Virus record (IMG/VR): IMGVR_UViG_2531839239_000026
DNA: 9,175 bases
From: a virus
Taxonomy: Duplodnaviria > Heunggongvirae > Uroviricota > Caudoviricetes
Reading direction: 5' to 3' (one strand)
The translations under genes were made by a program, and so were the position numbers. Under the pieces are notes generated by a model that made no database searches, was not told the origin of the DNA, and saw only the letters and a list, made by a program, of their open reading frames with translations. This document shows, one piece after another, positions 1 through 9,175 of the stretch (positions are counted from its first letter, which is position 1; every line of letters begins with the position of its first letter).

Positions 1-1236
1 CTATGATAACCGCGCATTCAACATGGCTACCTGTTCGTCGTTCATGTCATCAATCCACATACCGTAAATTTCATACACCATCTGCGCAGTTTCATGCCCC
101 ATTTGGCTGGCTATAAATGCCGGGTTCGCTCCTGCCGTCAACAGCCAGCAGGCAAAAGTATGCCGCGTATGGTACGGATTACGGCGGCGAATACCAGCAC
201 GTTTTACTGCTGCATTCCACCTTGCCCCCAAACTGCTTACCGAGTAATAAGGTTTTTGTTTTCCGTTACACACCCTGGGCATGAAAACAAAATGCAGTTT
301 TTGCTTTTCGGTTCTGCCGTACTCCCGATGATAAAAGGTGATTTCGCTTTTGCGATGATGCCCGGTCAGTTTGTATTGCTCCTTCAGTGCTTCAAGAGCA
401 GGCTGCAGTAGTGTTACCGTCCGGATCCCCGCATTTGTTTTTGGGGGACCGAACATATCCAGTATCGTCAGGTTTCTTCTGACATTCACAACTCCCTTCT
501 CGAAATCCACATCCTCCCACGCCAGAGCAGCCAGTTCCCCGTGACGAAGCCCGGAGTATACGGCAAATTTCCACAAGTTCTGGCTCTGTCCTTTTTCACT
601 TTCCATTAATGCATTGAATTCTGTTTTAGATAACGGGTCAGGCTTTATTCTGTTTCTCTGTAATTTCTTTACTCCTTCAAATGGTTTGGTTGATATAAAT
701 CCCGACTGATACGCAAAACGTAACAACGAACAGAGCAGGGCGATATAGTTATCAACTGTGCGCACGGTTCTTCCTTTTTTGTTGGATCTTGGATTATCCA
801 GGTAAAGCGTTTCTCCATGCAGCAGTTCATTCCGGTAGTTTAAGATATCGCTATAACGAATATGCGATATCGGAGTACTCTCACAAATTATTATCCTGAG
901 TGTTTTTAATTGTGATTTCGTTTTCTTCATTGTGTTTGTTGTTAACTCTGTTTCTTTAATTTTTGTCCAGATATCACAAAGCTCCCCGAACGTTTTTATG
1001 ACCCTCGTTGTCACCATTTTTGCCCCAGTGCTGGACTGGGGAAAACGTCTTAAATACTCAAACTCACCGGAATTGATTTCATGAACTATCAACGCTCTTA
1101 AATTCCCGGCTTTTTTAATGTTACTGTTAGTAACCTCCCAGCCTTTCAATGTTTCCCGACATCGTTTTCCTCGAAACATGAACCAGATGCGAATGTATTT
1201 ACCTCGAATCTCGACACCTGTTGGTAATTTAGACAT
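1..1236 (-). CDS. intR: Tyrosine-family phage integrase (IntR-like), 411 aa
   Basis: Track ORF 1..1236 (-), ATG at 1236..1234, stop TAG at 3..1. C-terminus carries an H-x-x-R motif (HTRHTFA) and a downstream Tyr (VYEIY), typical of tyrosine recombinases. Length matches my recall of Rac IntR. Confidence 0.9.
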   Translation of the reverse strand: MSKLPTGVEIRGKYIRIWFMFRGKRCRETLKGWEVTNSNIKKAGNLRALIVHEINSGEFEYLRRFPQSSTGAKMVTTRVIKTFGELCDIWTKIKETELTTNTMKKTKSQLKTLRIIICESTPISHIRYSDILNYRNELLHGETLYLDNPRSNKKGRTVRTVDNYIALLCSLLRFAYQSGFISTKPFEGVKKLQRNRIKPDPLSKTEFNALMESEKGQSQNLWKFAVYSGLRHGELAALAWEDVDFEKGVVNVRRNLTILDMFGPPKTNAGIRTVTLLQPALEALKEQYKLTGHHRKSEITFYHREYGRTEKQKLHFVFMPRVCNGKQKPYYSVSSLGARWNAAVKRAGIRRRNPYHTRHTFACWLLTAGANPAFIASQMGHETAQMVYEIYGMWIDDMNDEQVAMLNARLS

Positions 1237-1237
1237 A

Positions 1238-1453
1238 TCATGAGTCTTTGATAAACTGATTTATCTTTGGATAGTTATACCAGATAATCCCTCGCTTACT
1301 GTCTGGCTTCCCTAAAGGAGATACTCGTTTGAAGTGGAAGCCTTCCACCCAACAGTTCTGGCGGTATGCTTCAATTTGTCTGGCCCCCAGACCAGTGCGA
1401 AGCATCAGGCCGTATTCAACCATCCACTCTTCATTAAAGATTACTTGTGCCAT
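1238..1453 (-). CDS. xisR: Excisionase-like protein (YdaQ/XisR-like), 71 aa
   Basis: Track ORF 1238..1477 trimmed to the ATG at 1453 ([10 protein letters not shown]...), which is preceded by GAGGTG 7 nt upstream. Stop TGA at 1240..1238 abuts the int ATG, the usual xis-int arrangement. Confidence 0.7.
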
Positions 1454-1552
1454 CGCATCACCTCTGGCAGGCGCCAATGTTAGACTTAAATTGACGCCCG
1501 ATGTTGATTATTAATAATCAGCTATGAAGTTTTAATTTGAATACAATGCAAT

Positions 1553-1741
1553 TCACGAGGACTGAAGTTTCTCGCAATTAAAATTTATCAGTTTTACTTT
1601 CTGCTCTCTGGAAACGCCTGCTTCTTTTTTACCTGAGAGCATTTTTTCGCATTCTGATTTCGTTAGTTTAGATTTTGAATATCTTGTCCAGTTAGTAGGA
1701 GTGCCACCTTCCTTTTCAATAGTGGCGGTAATTTTATACAT
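1553..1741 (-). CDS. ydaC: Small Rac-prophage protein YdaC-like, 62 aa
   Basis: Track ORF 1553..1813 trimmed to the ATG at 1741 (MYKITATIEKEGG...), which has a strong SD (GGAGG, 5-nt spacer). The upstream extension overlaps the ralR frame. Start overlaps the TAA that closes the ralR frame (CATGTATAA). Confidence 0.6.
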   Translation of the reverse strand: MYKITATIEKEGGTPTNWTRYSKSKLTKSECEKMLSGKKEAGVSREQKVKLINFNCEKLQSS

Positions 1742-1928
1742 GAACACCTCCATTATTATTTCCAGTGGTTCGTTTATTTCATCGTTCGAGTGCTTCTTTT
1801 TCACTTCCACCATAACCGGTTCGGGATTCGCATCCGTTACACTTCGCTCGGTAATATCCTGAAATGGCTTTCACCGTTACTGATGGACAACCACAAAATG
1901 GACATGGTTTAACATTGTCATATCTCAT
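1734..1928 (-). pseudogene. ralR: Restriction-alleviation protein / DNase toxin RalR (Lar) frame, interrupted by an in-frame TGA at 1781..1779
   Basis: My own translation of the minus strand from ATG 1928 gives MRYDNVKPCPFCGCPSVTVKAISGYYRAKCNGCESRTGYGGSEKEALER, then TGA, then NKRTTGNNNGGVHV, then TAA at 1736..1734. Reading TGA as Trp gives exactly 64 aa, the RalR length I recall. Cys-x2-Cys ... Cys-x2-Cys zinc-ribbon-like pattern. An in-frame ATG also exists at 1940 (MRKIMRY...). Confidence 0.6.
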
Positions 1929-1983
1929 AATTTTTCTCATAAAAATATTTCAAGTTGGCGGTGCATTACACCGCCAGGCTGAA

Positions 1984-2793
1984 TTATTCCTCTGAATTAT
2001 CGATTACACTGTATTCCCCGGTTAATACAGAGGAATCTGCAGGATCGATTGTCAGTGGTTCCTTTTCATCCATTGATACTGCACGCTGGATCTCAATTGA
2101 TACGGGCAGATATTTGAACAGGCGACGAATAGCCGTTTTCTTTGCCATTTCTTCCCAGTGAGTTACCCACGGCCCGTTATTACCAGCTTTACTCTGGCTG
2201 CGCACCAGCTCAATCTGTTTGCGCGTCATAACTTCAAACTGAGTACCTCCGTCTTTCAGTCTTGCGACAGCATAGACGTGGGTAACAGGGGCATCTTCGT
2301 TTTCTCCTGGGCGGTGTATTAACTTTTCATCAAGGCCAAATTCGAAATTAAACTCGTCACCTTCACGGACAACACGGGCTGACAAGCTGGCGATTTGACC
2401 TGAACGGCGAGCCAGATCAATCATGCCTCGATAGCCAATGATTAGCTGAACGTTTTTTTTACCGCTCTTTTCGTTTTTATTACCAAAAGGCAGTAAATAT
2501 GCATGACCGAGGGCGCTACCGGGCTCAAGTCCGAGCTGTGAACACTGTACGATTGCACTGACAAAACTCATAGTGTCACAGTTTCCTAACGCCGGAACTT
2601 TACGAATTTCTGTGGTGGCGATACGGATCATACGTTCAGCCGTCATATGGCGTGGAAGAGCTGCTGCCAGTTGCTCTTTCATTGATGGCTGGTTAATAAA
2701 ACTAATCACGTCGTTATTTTTAATTGCTGCTGGTGCACGGTTTCCCTGAGTTTTTTGCAGATCGGCTTTTGCGATTGGTGGTTGCTTAGTCAT
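1984..2793 (-). CDS. recT: RecT single-strand annealing protein, 269 aa
   Basis: Track ORF 1984..2850 trimmed to ATG 2793 ([16 protein letters not shown]...), preceded by AAGGA 8 nt upstream. Start overlaps the recE stop by 8 nt. Sequence and length match my recall of RecT. Confidence 0.9.
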
Positions 2794-5386
2794 TTGCATA
2801 TTCCTTAGCCCAGCGGGGCAGTGATAACGTCTTAATAGCTGGCCATTCATCGGTATTGAGGCAGTCAGCCAGGGTTCGCAGATTGCGGTGATATTCCAGC
2901 TGACCTGCCAGTTTTGCTTCTTCGCCCATCATGAAAATTTCAACCGGATAACGTCCGCATTCAATAGTTGTGCTGGCAACCAGAAAAACGAAAGTTGGCT
3001 GCACTCCAAACTGTGCTTCATAACCGTCACTGTAGAATGCATCCTGAACGTGATAGCGGTAGTCGTAATAAGCGGTTTTGAATCGTTGAATATCCGCCGT
3101 AGTTTTCACGTCCATGATCCAGTGAAATTCAGGGATAATTTTGTCCGGACGGCACCGACACAAAATTGCTGTTTCAGGATCTTCCCAGTAAATTGATGAT
3201 TCAGCGTGTCCGGCGCTTTCAACAAGCCATTGCCCCAGCGGCAAAGCCATAACGCTCTGATACATGAGTTCAATTTTCCGGCCTTCTTCGGCAGTGATAA
3301 CCGTTTTTCCTGTGCTTGCGCATTCCCTCAGAAACGCTTTCTCTTCTTCTTTTCCGGAGTTTGTCCGGCGGTTAAATTCAGGTGCTACGATAAAGCGGTT
3401 ACTGAATTCTTCCGGCTCAAGTACCCGGCAGTGGAAAGCGGTTCCTAAATCGAGCGTTTTTGTCTTTGTGGTGTCCACGGGGGCATTTTTACGCCACAAA
3501 TACAGTGCCGGAGTATCAGCAATGTCATCGAGCTGAGACTTACTGACACCGGGACCCGCGTGGTAATTCTCATTCGAAATTCCGTAATAAATACCTGGCT
3601 CTATGTCTTCTACGATTACGGGATCTGCGACTTCGCCAGTTTCATCACTGCAATCGCGATGCGGATCGCTGCCAGCATTCTCATTGTGCGGATGTTCAGC
3701 GCCTTCCATTTCCTCCGGATCATTTTCCTTAGCTTCAACCTGACTCTCTTCATCGAATGTTTCCTGGTATGTTGCGTCGCCCATCACCGCACCACAGTCA
3801 GGGCAGTTATCCCCGCCAGTCTGGCCGCAGGCATTGCAGGCTATTTCCGGTTCCTGTTGCACTACTGGCTCAGGTTGATTCATATCCGGGCTGGTTTTTT
3901 CCGTTTCTGGCTGGTTCTGGTACACACAATCGCGAGTCTGGATCCCCTTTACCCATTTCGGATCGTTCGGGTCGCTAATTCCGTCAACAAATTCACCACG
4001 TGATGCAGCAAGCAATTTATCGGCATCGACAGGATTTTTTGATGGAATGTTTTTCCGGGCTTCATGGAGTTCTGCCCGCAGTTCCTGATATTTCGCATCA
4101 ACAGAATTTACCTGTGACTGAGCATCCAGCGGCTGCGTGTCCTGATGATGTTCAGTTGCGTCCGGTTCCATTGTTTCAGCCTCTCCCTGTTCAACTGCCG
4201 TTGTTCCAGATGGTTGCGGTTTTTCTTCATCATCCTGTTTTCCTTCTTCTGTTACTCGCTGCGGCATCGGGGCAGAGGAGCGACCGCAGGCAATATCCAC
4301 GATTTCCGGATCAGGGTTGGCATGAGCGGTTTCAGTCAGTACTTTGTTCAGATATTCAGTGACGTGCGCGGGGATGACCTCGATCCCAATTGGTGCTTCT
4401 TTTACGGACGCAACCACGATGGCGCGGGAATAATCCAGCCCGCCAGGCATGGTGATGAATTTGTCGCGGAAAACAGAAAAGGGCGGTTTATTTTCAGCGA
4501 TAATTTCCTCAATGCGTTTAGCGTGTGCCGGATGAAGGTTATAGATGTCCAGATCCATTGAACGGGCCAGTACGCCAGTGGCTACGTCGCGCGCCAGTGA
4601 CGTCAGATCGTGTACGAAACCTTCGCCGCGATCGGTGAGGTTTCCGCCGCCAGCATTAGCACCGGAAGCCGTGCGAGTGATGTGTGAAACACGATTACCC
4701 TTCATCCACTCTTTTGTCAGCAGTCCTCGATCGGTGTAGTCAGCGTTCAGGTATGCTTCGAAAAAAGCAGTTATCAGTCCCAGGTTTGAATTACCAGGAT
4801 TAGGGAAAACTTTGTCAGTGTCACGAACCAGTTTGTGGAGTTCGCGAATTTCCAGCGGGTCGAGCAGGCTGGTTTTGTGGGAAACAGCCAGGGCAGTAAC
4901 AGCCGGTAGTTCTTCAGCCCGAGCAATGTGTAATGCCTGGAGTCCGTCGCGTGAAACGTGCGTTACCGGTTTTTCGCTGCCGTGTTGAGCAAGCCAACGA
5001 ATGGGCAGTTCCTGGCCAGAAATTGGGAGTAGCATATTCTCCTCAATCTCAGTCATGTCTTCGCCGTTGACGTTGGTATTGCCTTGATAGTGAGCGTTGT
5101 CTGGTGCTGCTCCCGGTTTTAGTTCCCATGTCATGGAGTCTTTGCTGAGTTGATAGCGTTCACTCCAGGTAAAATCGATCTCACCTTCAGCGGGCAGGTC
5201 ATTAACGACAGGAAAATTCGTGGCAACAGCTTTAAAATAGCTGCTCAGTTTTTTACCTGACTTAACGATCAGGTAGTCCAGAGTGGCACAGGTCGATTCA
5301 AAATCGTTGCTTGCCCACAGGACGACGTCAGGTTCACCGGATGATTTTTTCGCTTTCCGTAACAGGAAGAGTGGTTTTGTGCTCAT
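2786..5386 (-). CDS. recE: RecE exonuclease VIII, 866 aa
   Basis: Track ORF 2786..5386 (-), [14 protein letters not shown]..., full length 866 aa. Has an acidic, low-complexity central region and a C-terminal nuclease region. Overlaps recT. Confidence 0.9.
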
Positions 5387-5457
5387 TGTTTTTTAACCTC
5401 AACTCAGATTAAAATTCGTTTTGTTCAGTGAATGATCTTGCCGGATACACACTGTTC

Positions 5458-5482
5458 ATAGCCTGCGCCATACGCAGGCTAT
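5458..5482. other. Perfect 10-bp-stem hairpin between recE and racC
   Basis: ATAGCCTGCG-CCATA-CGCAGGCTAT: 5458-5467 pairs with 5473-5482, 5-nt loop. Confidence 0.4.
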
Positions 5483-5487
5483 TTCTT

Positions 5488-5763
5488 TCAGATTTCACCT
5501 TTTAATTTCATTGCAATTAGAGTTGCCAGAAATTCGGCTTTTTTTTCTGTGGGCAGATTCTTTCCGATATGCACCAGGCACATTTTTTTGACACCTTCAT
5601 CAAGTGTTTTTACGTTGCCTGATGGACCATCGATATCAACCACAGTGAATGGGGTTTCTTTATTTTCTGTTTTAATTACGTAGCCAATGCGCTTTCCTTC
5701 CAGATTCACCTCGTGAACAATGTCATCGGTAGTTACAACAGTGGCTTCATAATTGGTAATCAT
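5488..5763 (-). CDS. racC: RacC-like protein, 91 aa
   Basis: Track ORF 5488..5811 trimmed to ATG 5763 (MITNYEATVVTTDD...), preceded by AAGGAG with a 6-nt spacer. Confidence 0.75.
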   Translation of the reverse strand: MITNYEATVVTTDDIVHEVNLEGKRIGYVIKTENKETPFTVVDIDGPSGNVKTLDEGVKKMCLVHIGKNLPTEKKAEFLATLIAMKLKGEI

Positions 5764-5837
5764 GTTTTTCTCCTTAATTAAGGTTGAGCGAATACCTGCC
5801 ATTTCTGGCATAAATTCAGTTTCGAATAGTCAATTAA

Positions 5838-6008
5838 TTAAAGTTCATGTGCCATCTGGTCTTTTTCGGCACAAGCTTCACTGCAATATTTTCTCGGTTC
5901 GTCTTTTGATAAAATCCCGTGCATGAAGTGAAGCATTCTTTCAATAGCTTTGCTTTCTTCAACGTCTTTTTTGCAAAGGTGGTAAGCACATTTTATTTTC
6001 TTAGTCAT
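5838..6008 (-). CDS. ydaE: YdaE-like small Cys-rich (metal-binding) protein, 56 aa
   Basis: Not in the ORF track because it is under 60 aa. My translation from ATG 6008: [56 protein letters not shown], stop TAA at 5840..5838. ATG overlaps the kilR TGA (ATGA). Confidence 0.7.
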   Translation of the reverse strand: MTKKIKCAYHLCKKDVEESKAIERMLHFMHGILSKDEPRKYCSEACAEKDQMAHEL

Positions 6009-6229
6009 CACCATGACTCCGCCTTTACAGGTAAACCATCACGACCGAGGAAGACTTTAATCATGCGGTCAGTAATGCATGTTTTTGTGGTCAGGTTACG
6101 AATATATAGTTTTCGCTTTTTAATATTGTTTGCCGAGGCAATATATGTCCGGCCTTCATGAAGAACATAATCGCCAGGAGTCACACACTGACGTGGTATT
6201 TCATCAGTTCCGAAGTGATGTGCAATCAT
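6008..6229 (-). CDS. kilR: KilR-like killing / cell-division inhibitor protein, 73 aa
   Basis: Track ORF 6008..6241 trimmed to ATG 6229 ([14 protein letters not shown]...), preceded by GGAG 8 nt upstream. Confidence 0.8.
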
Positions 6230-6410
6230 AATTATCTCCATTTTTACAAATGAACTTTGTTGATGCGGTGCCTGGTGCCTCCAGGTGACTGCAACCAGTT
6301 AACAATTACAGTCGGCTTTCCCACCCAAACCAATAAGGACTAACATGACTTTTAACTGTGCCACGTGCGCTTAGCCGCATTCACCGCATCACAAAATTCA
6401 CTTTAAAAAG

Positions 6411-6452
6411 GGCGGACATCAGCCGAACTTCAAGAAAAAAACTGATGCCGCC
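6411..6452. other. Long interrupted inverted repeat in the kilR-sieB intergenic region
   Basis: GGCGGACATCAG (6411-6422) and CTGATGCCGCC (6442-6452) form an 11-bp stem with one bulged A around a 19-nt A-rich loop. On the minus strand it is followed by CTTTTTAAA. Confidence 0.3.
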
Positions 6453-6627
6453 AGGACTACACACAGCAATGTCGTTATTTACAACCGGAGGCGCACTCCC
6501 ACCATTTAAATTTAACAGACAAGACCGACTCTTTATGGATATCGGAAATGCGCCTTCGTGTTGTGCCCGGTTTTATTTCACCACCTCCGGGCTTCGGTGG
6601 TCTCGGCTATACCCCTACAGCGAGAGC

Positions 6628-6656
6628 TTGTGTTAACATTTCAATACCCTTACAGT
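6628..6656 (+). promoter_or_regulatory. Candidate sigma70 promoter for sieB
   Basis: TTGTGT (6628-6633), 17-bp spacer, TACAGT (6651-6656), 14 nt upstream of the sieB ATG. Sequence inspection only. Confidence 0.25.
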
Positions 6657-6670
6657 TGAGAGTTATTGAT

Positions 6671-7159
6671 ATGTTGGATGTATTTACTCCATTGTTGAAA
6701 CTTTTTGCTAACGAGCCACTCGAAAGACTTATGTATACGATTATCATTTTTGGTCTCACTCTCTGGCTGATACCGAAAGAGTTTACTGTCGCATTCAATG
6801 CTTATACTGAAATACCTTGGCTCTTTCAGATTATCGTTTTTGCCTTTTCTTTCGTGGTCGCCATTTCCTTCTCAAGATTGCGAGCACATATTCAAAAGCA
6901 TTATTCATTACTACCAGAGCAACGAGTATTGCTTCGTTTATCTGAGAAAGAAATCGCTGTATTTAAAGATTTCCTTAAAACAGGAAATCTTATTATCACT
7001 TCTCCTTGCCGTAACCCGGTTATGAAAAAATTAGAACGGAAGGGCATCATTCAACATCAGAGTGATAGCGCAAACTGTTCTTATTATCTCGTCACCGAAA
7101 AATACTCCCATTTTATGAAGTTATTCTGGAACAGCAGGAGTAGACGTTTTAATCGTTAG
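6671..7159 (+). CDS. sieB: Superinfection exclusion protein SieB-like, 162 aa
   Basis: Track ORF 6548..7159 trimmed to ATG 6671 (MLDVFTPLLKLFANEPLERLMYTIIIFGLTLWLIPKEF...). Two hydrophobic segments suggest a membrane protein. The N-terminal extension in the track is a Pro/Gly-rich intergenic read-in. Confidence 0.8.
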   Translation: MLDVFTPLLKLFANEPLERLMYTIIIFGLTLWLIPKEFTVAFNAYTEIPWLFQIIVFAFSFVVAISFSRLRAHIQKHYSLLPEQRVLLRLSEKEIAVFKDFLKTGNLIITSPCRNPVMKKLERKGIIQHQSDSANCSYYLVTEKYSHFMKLFWNSRSRRFNR

Positions 7160-7311
7160 CTTACTGTGTGCTTCTCCAACCATCGGCGCGCACCAGTTTC
7201 GGTTTTAAATGTTTTGCTTTTGGTATACGTCATGGCAGTGAACGTTCCATCCTGGTTGGGGAACACGCCGCACACCAGGGATTCGTTGTTGCCGAGGTCG
7301 ATTTTTTGCAT
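7156..7311 (-). CDS. ydaF: YdaF-like small protein, 51 aa
   Basis: Not in the ORF track. My translation from ATG 7311: MQKIDLGNNESLVCGVFPNQDGTFTAMTYTKSKTFKTETGARRWLEKHTVS, stop TAA 7158..7156. Its stop overlaps the sieB TAG (7157..7159) on the opposite strand. Confidence 0.65.
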   Translation of the reverse strand: MQKIDLGNNESLVCGVFPNQDGTFTAMTYTKSKTFKTETGARRWLEKHTVS

Positions 7312-7321
7312 TTTGCGAATC

Positions 7322-7456
7322 TCACATCTTGTTGCTACGTATAGCGACTTCTGCCTGCCAGAGATCCCAGTCGTTGCTGCGTAAAGCCTGCACAGCCTGG
7401 TTGTAAGTGATACCGCAACAATCCATCAAATACTGAACTACTTCGTAATGCACCAT
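7322..7456 (-). CDS. ydaG: YdaG-like small protein, 44 aa
   Basis: Not in the ORF track. My translation from ATG 7456: MVHYEVVQYLMDCCGITYNQAVQALRSNDWDLWQAEVAIRSNKM, stop TGA 7324..7322. A GGGGA SD-like element lies upstream. Confidence 0.65.
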   Translation of the reverse strand: MVHYEVVQYLMDCCGITYNQAVQALRSNDWDLWQAEVAIRSNKM

Positions 7457-7632
7457 CTTATCTATCCCCTTAACGCCGGGTGGCGGAACTAACTGCTGCA
7501 CTGCAAAATTTGAATCCCGCCGTCATGTTCATACGCCTCGGGCTGGCTACTTACCCCCTGACCACTGCTTGGTAACTCGAAGTATTGCCCGGCGTTCTGT
7601 GGGGCGGGGTGGGTGGTTGGTGTATGTAATCT

Positions 7633-7672
7633 ACAATAAAAAACTGTTTTTGTGTCAACAGTTTTTAATTGT
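7633..7672. promoter_or_regulatory. OL-like operator dyad with a leftward -35-like TTGACA in its spacer
   Basis: Left arm ACAATAAAAAACTGTT at 7633-7648, right arm AACAGTTTTTAATTGT at 7657-7672 (one mismatch to a perfect inverted repeat). Spacer TTTGTGTC reads TTGACA on the minus strand (7658..7653). The 16-mer left arm is identical to 8668-8683. Confidence 0.45.
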
Positions 7673-7682
7673 TGTTTTGGGC

Positions 7683-7705
7683 AAAAAAATCCCTCGAAAG
7701 AGGGA
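7683..7705 (-). terminator. Candidate intrinsic terminator downstream of parE
   Basis: Minus-strand RNA folds as UCCCUC-UUUC-GAGGGA (6-bp stem, 7690-7695 with 7700-7705) followed by seven U (plus-strand A-run 7683-7689). It starts 18 nt after the parE stop. Confidence 0.4.
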
Positions 7706-7723: not shown

Positions 7724-8011
7724 TCAGATAGAGAAGGGAAATTGTCGCCGAGAATGTGTCACGCTTACAATCTCAATGCTTGAAGCAGCTACTCTGTACA
7801 GGATTATGTAGTTAGGGTGGGTCACGATCTCTCTCAATCCAGAAACCCGTTCGCTTGGTGGATATAAGTACGGATGCTCAGATAGAGGTAATACCGATGT
7901 TTCAATGCGTATTTTTAGTCTACGTGCTGCCGGTGGGTTCTCCTTGGCGATGTAAGTTATGATCTGGCGCAAATCATCGCGAGCAGACGGTAGCCATAAA
8001 ATGGGTAACAT
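7724..8011 (-). CDS. parE: ParE/RelE-superfamily toxin (ParE-like), 95 aa
   Basis: Track ORF 7724..8011 (-). The C-terminal region ...LREIVTHPNYIILYRVAASSIEIVSVTHSRRQFP resembles the ParE/RelE fold signature. Start ATG overlaps the upstream gene's stop (TAATG), indicating translational coupling in toxin-after-antitoxin order. Confidence 0.75.
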   Translation of the reverse strand: MLPILWLPSARDDLRQIITYIAKENPPAARRLKIRIETSVLPLSEHPYLYPPSERVSGLREIVTHPNYIILYRVAASSIEIVSVTHSRRQFPFSI

Positions 8012-8202
8012 TACTCGCTCTTGTTAGTTACAGCAATTTGAGCAATAAGATTTTCCATTTCAGCCATTACCTCGTCATGTGGAATTGCGGGGCGAGTGTC
8101 TGCAAGGCTTGACGTTACTTTAGTGCGCAACCATTCGTTGTAACTGTTTTCTTGTTCGGTAGTTTCGAATTCTGAAACTATCGGAGAAAGGGCTGTACCC
8201 AT
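8011..8202 (-). CDS. paaA: Small antitoxin, PaaA-like partner of ParE, 63 aa
   Basis: Track ORF 8011..8202 (-), MGTALSPIVSEFETTEQENSYNEWLRTKV..., preceded by a strong SD (GAGGAG, 7-nt spacer). Small and acidic, immediately upstream of and coupled to the ParE-like gene. Resembles the PaaA2 antitoxin of the three-component paaR2-paaA2-parE2 system from my recall. Confidence 0.6.
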   Translation of the reverse strand: MGTALSPIVSEFETTEQENSYNEWLRTKVTSSLADTRPAIPHDEVMAEMENLIAQIAVTNKSE

Positions 8203-8229
8203 GGCATAACTCCTCTTCTTGTACTGTGG

Positions 8230-8631
8230 TCACGCCCGGCGGCTTTTTTGTGCCGCCAGCCACCTAGCAATGGTTTCTTCCATTGATTTTTTCTTGTCTT
8301 TGATTTCTTGAAGCATTTTTTCTTGGTCTTCCTCAGGAAACGCACTAAAAGCTTGGAGCAGTTCGCGTTGGCGAGGACCAATTTTCATCGTGTCAGGGGT
8401 GAAAATTTGCTCACACTCTTCAGGAGGCAATAAAAACCAATGCAATGGATGCCCTGAAACCTCAACCAGTTTATCCAAACTTGAGGCTTTAGGTGTAGCC
8501 TTACCGCTGACCCATTGTTGAACAGTTTGTTGTGTCACACCAATTCTACGGGCAAGCTCAGCCTGGCTCCATCCAGTTTCCTGAAGAAGCTTGCTGATTC
8601 TGTACATAGATACTTCTAGGGCGCTCATCAT
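8230..8631 (-). CDS. cI-like / PaaR-like HTH (XRE-family) repressor, 133 aa
   Basis: Track ORF 8230..8631 (-). HTH region ...SQAELARRIGVTQQTVQQWVSGKATPK... No LexA/S24-type peptidase C-terminal domain is apparent. Divergent from the Cro-like gene across the dyad-containing intergenic region. No SD precedes the ATG. Confidence 0.75.
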   Translation of the reverse strand: MMSALEVSMYRISKLLQETGWSQAELARRIGVTQQTVQQWVSGKATPKASSLDKLVEVSGHPLHWFLLPPEECEQIFTPDTMKIGPRQRELLQAFSAFPEEDQEKMLQEIKDKKKSMEETIARWLAAQKSRRA

Positions 8632-8667
8632 TATTCAATTTTACAGGTAAATACTGTTAAAAGCATC

Positions 8668-8706
8668 ACAATAAAAAACTGTTGATTGCATACAGTTTTT
8701 TATTGT
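8668..8706. promoter_or_regulatory. OR-like operator dyad between the divergent repressor and cro-like genes
   Basis: Perfect 15-bp inverted repeat: ACAATAAAAAACTGT at 8668-8682 and ACAGTTTTTTATTGT at 8692-8706, separated by TGATTGCAT. The spacer carries rightward -35-like TTGATT/TTGCAT hexamers. The left arm is the same 16-mer as 7633-7648. Confidence 0.5.
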
Positions 8707-8739
8707 AGGCTTTGCTTATAGTTTTTAGAGGAGGGCAAA

Positions 8740-9012
8740 ATGCTAGATAGCACTCGCGAAAAAATTAGGCAGAAATACACTCAGGCTGAAATAGGTCGTT
8801 ATATGGGGGTCGCTCAACAGACTGTTTGGCAATGGTTTAGCTTTGGCGTTCCCCCAAAGCAGGTAATTCCGTTATGCCAACTAATGAAGTGGGAAGTTAC
8901 CCCGCATGAAATCCGCCCAGATATTTATCCTAACCCAACCGACGGTTTACCTGTTGGATGTAAGGTTAACACATCAAATGCGCCGGAGTTGATTCATGAA
9001 AATCAAGCATGA
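8740..9012 (+). CDS. ydaS: Cro-like HTH regulator (YdaS family), 90 aa
   Basis: Track ORF 8740..9012 (+), MLDSTREKIRQKYTQAEIGRYMGVAQQTVWQWF... HTH-like region, GGAGG SD with a 4-nt spacer. Sits in the cro position, divergent from the repressor. Confidence 0.7.
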   Translation: MLDSTREKIRQKYTQAEIGRYMGVAQQTVWQWFSFGVPPKQVIPLCQLMKWEVTPHEIRPDIYPNPTDGLPVGCKVNTSNAPELIHENQA

Positions 9013-9175
9013 ACACATCCGCATGGCGATGAATGCCTGGGCGCATCCGGACGGCGAAAAAGTACCGGCTGCGAAAATTACCAAAGCGTATTTCGAGCTG
9101 GGAATGACGTTCCCGGAACTGTATGACGACAGCCATCCGGAAGCCATGGCTCGCAATACTCAGAAAATTTTCCGT
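8996..9175 (+). CDS. ydaT: YdaT-like protein, N-terminal 60 codons (runs off the window end)
   Basis: ATG at 8996 preceded by GGAG with a 7-nt spacer. Translation MKIKHEHIRMAMNAWAHPDGEKVPAAKITKAYFELGMTFPELYDDSHPEAMARNTQKIFR stays open to the window end. Overlaps the ydaS 3' end by 17 nt. Confidence 0.65.
   Translation, partial: MKIKHEHIRMAMNAWAHPDGEKVPAAKITKAYFELGMTFPELYDDSHPEAMARNTQKIFR

Follow-up and report, generated by a model that had tools for sequence, protein, structure and literature searches.

The closest described relative of this locus is the RalR/RalA toxin-antitoxin pair of the K-12 Rac prophage, in which pairing of the antitoxin RNA RalA with the ralR mRNA has been proven by mutation and the antitoxin activity of RalA is Hfq-dependent (Guo et al., 2014; PMC4041452). 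In the same work, residue 52 of RalR was essential for DNase activity, ydaC was concluded to make no protein, and the RalA terminator was a structure prediction only (PMC4041452). The accumulation of RalA has been described as "very low level", and 61 of 3,376 RNA-seq sets contained the RNA; the supplement of the RNA-seq compendium covers the co-transcription of minus-strand genes only.

A second group of studies concerns YdaT, the CII analogue of these prophages. The YdaT operator of CP-933P is TTGATT-N6-AATCAA (PMC9986795), the K-12 Rac box is ATGATT-N6-AATCAA, and either protein binds either box (PMC11879457). The sites treated in the YdaT papers cited here are a ydaT-proximal box at the ydaS/ydaT junction and, in Rac, the racR-ydaS operators. 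One YdaT paper describes a single strong YdaT site in CP-933P, and the paper on Rac YdaT reports no genome-wide site search. It is a point left open that the YdaT tetramer has two DNA-binding faces while one strong site is known (PMC9986795). In phage lambda, the promoters PI (int) and PaQ (antisense to Q) are activator-dependent, and the PaQ antisense RNA is made during the establishment of lysogeny. Consensus-like sigma-70 sites that remain unused are also familiar from AT-rich, horizontally acquired DNA as spurious promoters silenced by H-NS.

The DNA analysed here (the window, 9,175 nt) comes from a Rac-type prophage and represents its left arm, with intR, xisR, ydaC/ralA, ralR, recT and recE (Table 1). 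Unlike the K-12 Rac prophage, it has a CP-933P-type immunity region at its right end, and not racR. The first 60 amino acids of the encoded YdaT are 97% identical to CP-933P YdaT (PDB 8BT1). The window is thus a mosaic of a Rac-type left arm (1-7700) and a CP-933P-type immunity region (7724-9175, with parE2, paaA2, paaR2, ydaS and ydaT). No single region of any complete E. coli genome in the collection accounts for more than 85% of the window; in O157:H7 and in strain E2863 the left arm is 100% identical to the window and the immunity region is different. Window positions equal K-12 (NC_000913.3) positions minus 1,411,999. Over 1430-1960, the window and K-12 MG1655 represent the same locus, with 98% identity and no indels, and every base of 1488-1554 is the same, so the K-12 experiments are directly applicable to the region of the hexamer pair discussed below.

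Table 1. Features of the window, in order of position.
Feature	Position	Strand	Basis or remark
intR	1-1236	-	ORF map and annotated matches
xisR, excisionase gene	1238-1453	-	ORF map; Pfam DUF1233
xisR starts	1468 and 1474	-	K-12 1413467 and 1413473, dRNA-seq (PMC7967276)
Nearest -10-like hexamer to the xisR starts, TAACAT	1482-1477	-	Weight-matrix scan
TTGACG, proposed -35	1491-1496	+	Confined to the xisR-type module; no sign of promoter function
Candidate second YdaT site, TTGATT-ATTAAT-AATCAG	1504-1521		11/12 match; 10-base core TGATT-N6-AATCA exact
AATAAT, proposed -10	1513-1518	+	Straddles the spacer and the right half-site of the palindrome at 1504-1521
TACAAT, most likely the RalA -10 element	1542-1547	+	Ends 7 nt before 1554
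ydaC/rcbA ORF (DUF1187), opposite RalA	1553-1741	-	ORF map; Pfam
RalA 5' end	1554 (dRNA-seq), 1557 (primer extension, secreted RNA)	+	K-12 1413553, 1413556
RalA, type I antitoxin RNA of RalR, antisense to ydaC	1557-1735	+	Rfam RF02694; K-12 ralA b4714
16-nt RalA segment pairing with the ralR mRNA	1619-1634	+	Target is the minus-strand RNA over 1791-1806
Predicted RalA terminator	1703-1735	+	GCCAC/GUGGC stem, 14-nt loop, then GGUAAUUUU
ralR toxin gene, 49-aa allele	1779-1928	-	Stop at codon 50; ORF map, K-12 alignment
recT and recE	Right of ralR		ORF map and annotated matches
ParE toxin (parE2)	7724-8011		Right end
PaaA2 (paaA2)	8011-8202		Right end
PaaR2-like HTH protein	8230-8631		Right end
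YdaS	8740-9012		Right end
Authentic YdaT-box, TTGATTCATGAAAATCAA	8989-9006	+	Includes the ydaT ATG (8996); besides 1504-1521, the window has no further copy of the motif
YdaT, first 60 codons only	From 8996		Right end

RalA is present at full length, matching the Rfam family over model positions 1-179 of 179 with 225.1 bits against a gathering score of 170 (E = 1.6e-54). As in K-12, it adjoins ralR on the strand opposite ydaC and has the same 16-nt pairing segment. A direct repeat (1619-1632 and 1791-1804) underlies this segment; 14 of the 16 positions of 1619-1634 and 1791-1806 are identical, one of the two differences allows a G-U pair, and the same holds in K-12. Through this segment RalA pairs with the ralR mRNA, whose translation is thereby blocked. 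The preliminary description proposed an antisense transcript from about 1525 through ydaC toward ralR and offered RalA or a similar antisense regulator as a candidate. This guess was right in kind, and RalA falls within the suspected interval (Rfam; K-12 b4714). A plus-strand RNA opposite ydaC that acts on ralR does exist and is the already known RalA antitoxin of the Rac prophage, but it starts at 1554-1557 and not near 1525. RalA would give a signal with a northern probe over 1525-1800 whichever promoter acts.

The preliminary description saw no clear plus-strand terminator, and a terminator scan likewise calls no canonical one within ydaC. The fold of the predicted RalA terminator has a weak 5-bp stem and a 14-nt loop (1703-1726), with UUUU at 1732-1735, and the Term-seq tables list no RalA 3' end for this region (PMC7815308). 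The fold of the whole RNA has an uninformative z-score of -0.08 and was dropped as support for structure.

The window differs from the K-12 locus in its two minus-strand reading frames. The ralR gene encodes 49 aa instead of 64, with W50 changed to a stop (codon 1779-1781) by G-to-A differences from K-12. This allele occurs in nine of about 126 related loci and also in O157:H7 and O111 strains. The stop precedes residue 52, so the 49-aa RalR is probably inactive, while RalA is intact. In ydaC, A1555 (T in K-12) creates a stop codon seven codons earlier than in K-12; the position lies between the mapped RalA 5' ends 1554 and 1557, and related loci have A in 88 cases and T in 38. The ydaC frame has all its bases in common with RalA, which is read from the opposite strand. 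The frame matches Pfam DUF1187 over its full length (E = 8e-39) and is kept open in related loci.

The promoter that the preliminary description proposed for the antisense transcript consists of TTGACG, a 16-bp spacer and AATAAT. All three are present on the plus strand as stated, and 99 bp indeed separate the xisR start codon (1453) from the ydaC stop codon (1553). Several properties favor a working sigma-70 promoter. With 10 of 12 consensus matches and a spacer within 16-18 bp, the pair is the top site in 1100-2300 and ranks fourth of 18,278 window positions by a simple weight-matrix score, the highest in the region. When the 99-bp gap alone is shuffled, no more than 4.9% of the shuffles hold at least one site of at least 10/12. 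However, such matches are at chance level across the window, with one site of at least 10/12 on the two strands together against 2.16 ± 1.40 in dinucleotide shuffles. The pair is therefore promoter-like on paper but statistically unexceptional, with no window-wide enrichment.

The mapped 5' ends of RalA do not agree with this promoter, for which a start near 1525 is predicted; the K-12 maps give 1554 and 1557 only. The K-12 dRNA-seq data (Thomason data tabulated in PMC7967276) list a single ralA start, called primary, at 1413553 (window 1554), in a table that gives several starts for other small RNAs where these are present. In this secondary compilation, which draws on a limited set of growth conditions, no primary 5' end occurs at about 1523-1527, 5-9 nt past the proposed -10 element. 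Cappable-seq does not contribute to the start evidence, the supplements of PMC4782308 having no rows for the region. By primer extension the RalA 5' end lies at 1557, 62 nt before the 16-nt repeat (Guo et al., 2014; PMC4041452), and a secreted RNA fragment begins GAGGACTGAAGT, likewise at 1557 (K-12 1413556).

The primer-extension RNA came from a prophage-less strain carrying pCA24N-ralR-ralA (PMC4041452), and the insert of this plasmid ends at the K-12 ydaC stop codon, window 1532. The plasmid thus lacked the hexamer pair, but RalA with its 5' end at 1557 was made and RalR was neutralised. The plasmid kept 25 bp of native DNA upstream of RalA, with the hexamer TACAAT inside. No other -10 score in the region exceeds that of TACAAT, although its weight-matrix rank is 259 versus rank 4 for the hexamer pair. 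No recognisable -35 element accompanies it (CAGCTA stands at 1519-1524), the base at the 1554 start is C, and the primer-extension end is 3 nt off. We infer that TACAAT is most likely the -10 element of RalA. The scarcity of RalA fits a weak promoter.

Related loci were retrieved from viral and genome collections by an exact 28-nt RalA pattern, which yielded about 125 loci (126 in the counts). The pattern was found in no sequences outside the E. coli/Shigella type, and no distant relative of YdaC turned up in the phage collection. In 91 loci the xisR module is present with an invariant TTGACG. The other 35 (about 28%) have a different integrase/excisionase module and CTGGCG in place of TTGACG, but RalA is kept; homology of this class to the window starts at 1503/1504, that is, at the palindrome described below. 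Thirty of these 35 loci encode the full-length 64-aa RalR, and 34 have TATAAT at 1542-1547. A toxin needing its antitoxin RNA is thus kept without TTGACG. Over all 126 loci, T1542, A1543, A1545 and T1547 do not vary, whereas 36 loci have T at 1544 and so read TATAAT; the third position is the least important one in a -10 element. The invariance of TTGACG in the xisR class would favor a sigma-70 promoter, but 10 of the 50 positions around it are variable, so six invariant positions are to be expected in about 26% of cases.

Taken together, RalA is probably transcribed from a weak, -10-only promoter with TACAAT as its -10 element and a start at 1554-1557, and not from the hexamer pair, which is an unused look-alike; we assign this reading a probability of about 0.75. 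Most likely, AT-rich intergenic DNA happens to resemble the consensus here, and we infer that the pair is silent under all conditions. It resembles the spurious sites silenced by H-NS in that it scores high and has no mapped start, and the mapped promoters nearby score poorly; compared with those sites, what is recorded here is only that the RalA DNA lies in a protein-occupied domain under some conditions. As a promoter for RalA, the hexamer pair rediscovers a known RNA with the wrong promoter and adds no new knowledge, whereas the comparison points to a -10-only promoter (TACAAT or TATAAT) where the native promoter had never been defined. The 5' end in the original study comes from a plasmid with 25 bp of native upstream DNA, and the 3' end is predicted.

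The xisR promoter diverges from that of RalA and likewise has no -35 element. Expression of xisR is induced by RpoS (PMC4632033). Papers on sigma-factor SELEX and sigma-S ChIP have no entry for the xisR-ydaC gap, and a literature search by coordinates and promoter names returned nothing relevant to it. A minus-strand combination of TTAAAA, 17 bp and AATAAT (start at about 1500) was considered as the xisR promoter and ruled out by the mapped xisR starts. Face-to-face interference between this minus-strand site and the hexamer pair was dropped on the same grounds.

Between the two promoters, 1505-1520 is a perfect 16-bp palindrome, and the 18 bp around it resemble a YdaT operator (Table 1). In the window, the exact core occurs twice against 0.01 expected, and the 12-base motif with at most one mismatch also occurs twice, against 0.09 expected; in both cases the copies are this site and the authentic box. 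Over about 1.1 Mb of YdaT-bearing loci, which are close relatives and not independent, hits with at most one mismatch are again the authentic box and 1504-1521 only. The half-sites and the 6-bp spacing agree with those of the described boxes (PMC9986795, PMC8630535, PMC11879457), and the same prophage encodes YdaT. In related loci the authentic box at the ydaT start often ends in AATCAG, and the half-sites of the candidate are identical to this commonest natural variant, TTGATT-N6-AATCAG. Polymorphism in the candidate falls in the spacer (A/T at 1510 is common; 1513 is T in two loci and C in one), but conservation weighs little among loci that are all closely related. Unlike the ydaT-proximal box, the candidate lies 7.5 kb from ydaT in the xisR/ralA gap and has an all-A/T spacer. 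It is unreported as a YdaT site in PMC9986795, PMC8630535, PMC11879457 and PMC11014345. Sites for Fur, FNR and IHF were also considered in the palindrome and rejected for wrong spacing or match to the consensus sequences.

With its center at 1512.5, the candidate box precedes the RalA start by 41.5 bp and the two xisR starts by 38.5 and 44.5 bp. In the known K-12 target, in contrast, YdaT acts from about 190 bp away (PMC11879457). The box is flanked by two promoters that both lack a -35 element, so YdaT bound there could switch on RalA, xisR-intR, or both. The YdaT tetramer might also loop 1504-1521 to the operator 7.5 kb away. The arrangement is reminiscent of lambda, in which PI and PaQ share the lack of a good -35 element with the xisR and RalA promoters. 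It differs in layout, with one site between two divergent promoters here, and in the operator, as lambda CII binds direct repeats TTGC-N6-TTGC across the -35 and YdaT binds an inverted repeat. We tentatively propose that 1504-1521 works as a second operator for YdaT, at odds that fall somewhat short of even. On RacR depletion, ydaC/ralA reads rose more than 70-fold in a TruSeq v2 library. This kit does not preserve strand information, and the rise could therefore come from leftward read-through.

The strongest competitor of the operator proposal is that 1491-1521 has no regulatory role, the hexamer pair and the palindrome being accidents of AT-rich sequence or, at most, an UP-like element of the RalA promoter; this reading is about as likely as the operator. 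UP elements lie upstream of promoters and are contacted by alpha-CTD. The DNA around the hexamer pair is 63% A+T, an AT tract occupies positions -50 to -36 relative to the RalA start, in the UP-element zone, and the conservation of the palindrome among such closely related loci cannot discriminate. The YdaT match was moreover spotted after the palindrome had been seen and is thus post hoc. On the other hand, the fit to the UP-element consensus is poor, as judged by eye from the sequence, and accident explains less readily why an exact core so rarely expected by chance is found here and at the known operator only, or why the larger set of YdaT-bearing loci gives no hits beyond these two sites.

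An improbable alternative is that the palindrome is a YdaT operator for the leftward xisR-intR promoter only, an analogue of lambda PI that plays no part in expressing RalA. YdaT is the functional analogue of lambda CII, by which int transcription is activated; the box lies at the distances given above from the xisR starts, and their promoter has no -35 element. The box stands 51-57 bp upstream of the xis start codon in both module classes, and xisR and intR rise about 100-fold on RacR depletion with ydaS/ydaT expressed. However, YdaT overproduction left Rac excision unchanged whereas YdaS did change it, which argues against strong activation of xisR-intR by YdaT. Where the two module classes recombined, the box belongs to the ralA side and not to the xis side, and a transcript from 1468/1474 would encode both Xis and Int, unlike that from lambda PI. 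Least probable is that the hexamer pair functions as a sigma-70 promoter. It would then be the true promoter of RalA, the 1554-1557 end arising by processing, or a conditional second one yielding RalA about 30 nt longer at the 5' end; a promoter masked by the protein-occupied, silent domain that covers the RalA DNA under some conditions is conceivable, but the single mapped start, the same 5' end from the plasmid and the loci without TTGACG all speak against it.

Returning to the proposed operator, a second YdaT site between the divergent promoters is the only part of this locus that might be new. If YdaT binds 1504-1521, this would be the first link from the immunity regulator of Rac/CP-933P to the integration/excision genes or to a toxin-antitoxin RNA. 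RalA and/or xisR-intR would then be switched on at the commitment to lysogeny, as counterparts of PaQ and PI, and the analogy with CII would extend beyond a PRE-like promoter. Such a site would also speak to the discrepancy between a two-faced tetramer and one strong site (PMC9986795).

Two exact cores are also found in the Klebsiella phage Kp4882-1, whose YdaT is 58% identical to the K-12 type, against 0.08 expected. One lies at the cII start and the other 7.2 kb away in the nin region. This second core, at 27255-27272 of the phage (L208), reads ATGATT-ATTATA-AATCAG and has an A/T-only spacer like that of 1504-1521; a small ORF and a NinG-like gene flank the 118-bp gap in which it lies. The cII start of phage mEp237 lacks a box of this kind, and the specificity of its CII-like protein thus probably differs; among phages with distant YdaT-like CII proteins, Kp4882-1 alone was informative.

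A third recurrent exact core, CTGATT-CGCGTA-AATCAG, lies outside the window, about 2.4 kb downstream of the ydaT start (for example at 10913-10930 of locus L138). It is located inside coding sequence (LIRVNQ) in about 40 loci, and its variants (CGCGTT, CGTGTA, CGCATT and others) are all in the spacer, with none in the half-sites. Either a third YdaT site, which would match the three promoters of lambda CII, or simple coding constraint may account for this core.

Two inverted repeats were noted near the positions discussed here. An 11-nt repeat joins 1527-1537 and 1576-1586 (AAGTTTTAATT and AATTAAAATTT, 91% complementary); in an RNA from about 1525, the 5' end could base-pair with the first hairpin loop of RalA, but the repeat is probably chance in AT-rich sequence. 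In loci with the other excisionase module (L003 at 1460-1500, and L004), a 9-bp inverted repeat, CCGCCAGTA-N11-TACTGGCGG, occupies the place where the window has TTGACG and may be an operator or a hairpin of that module.
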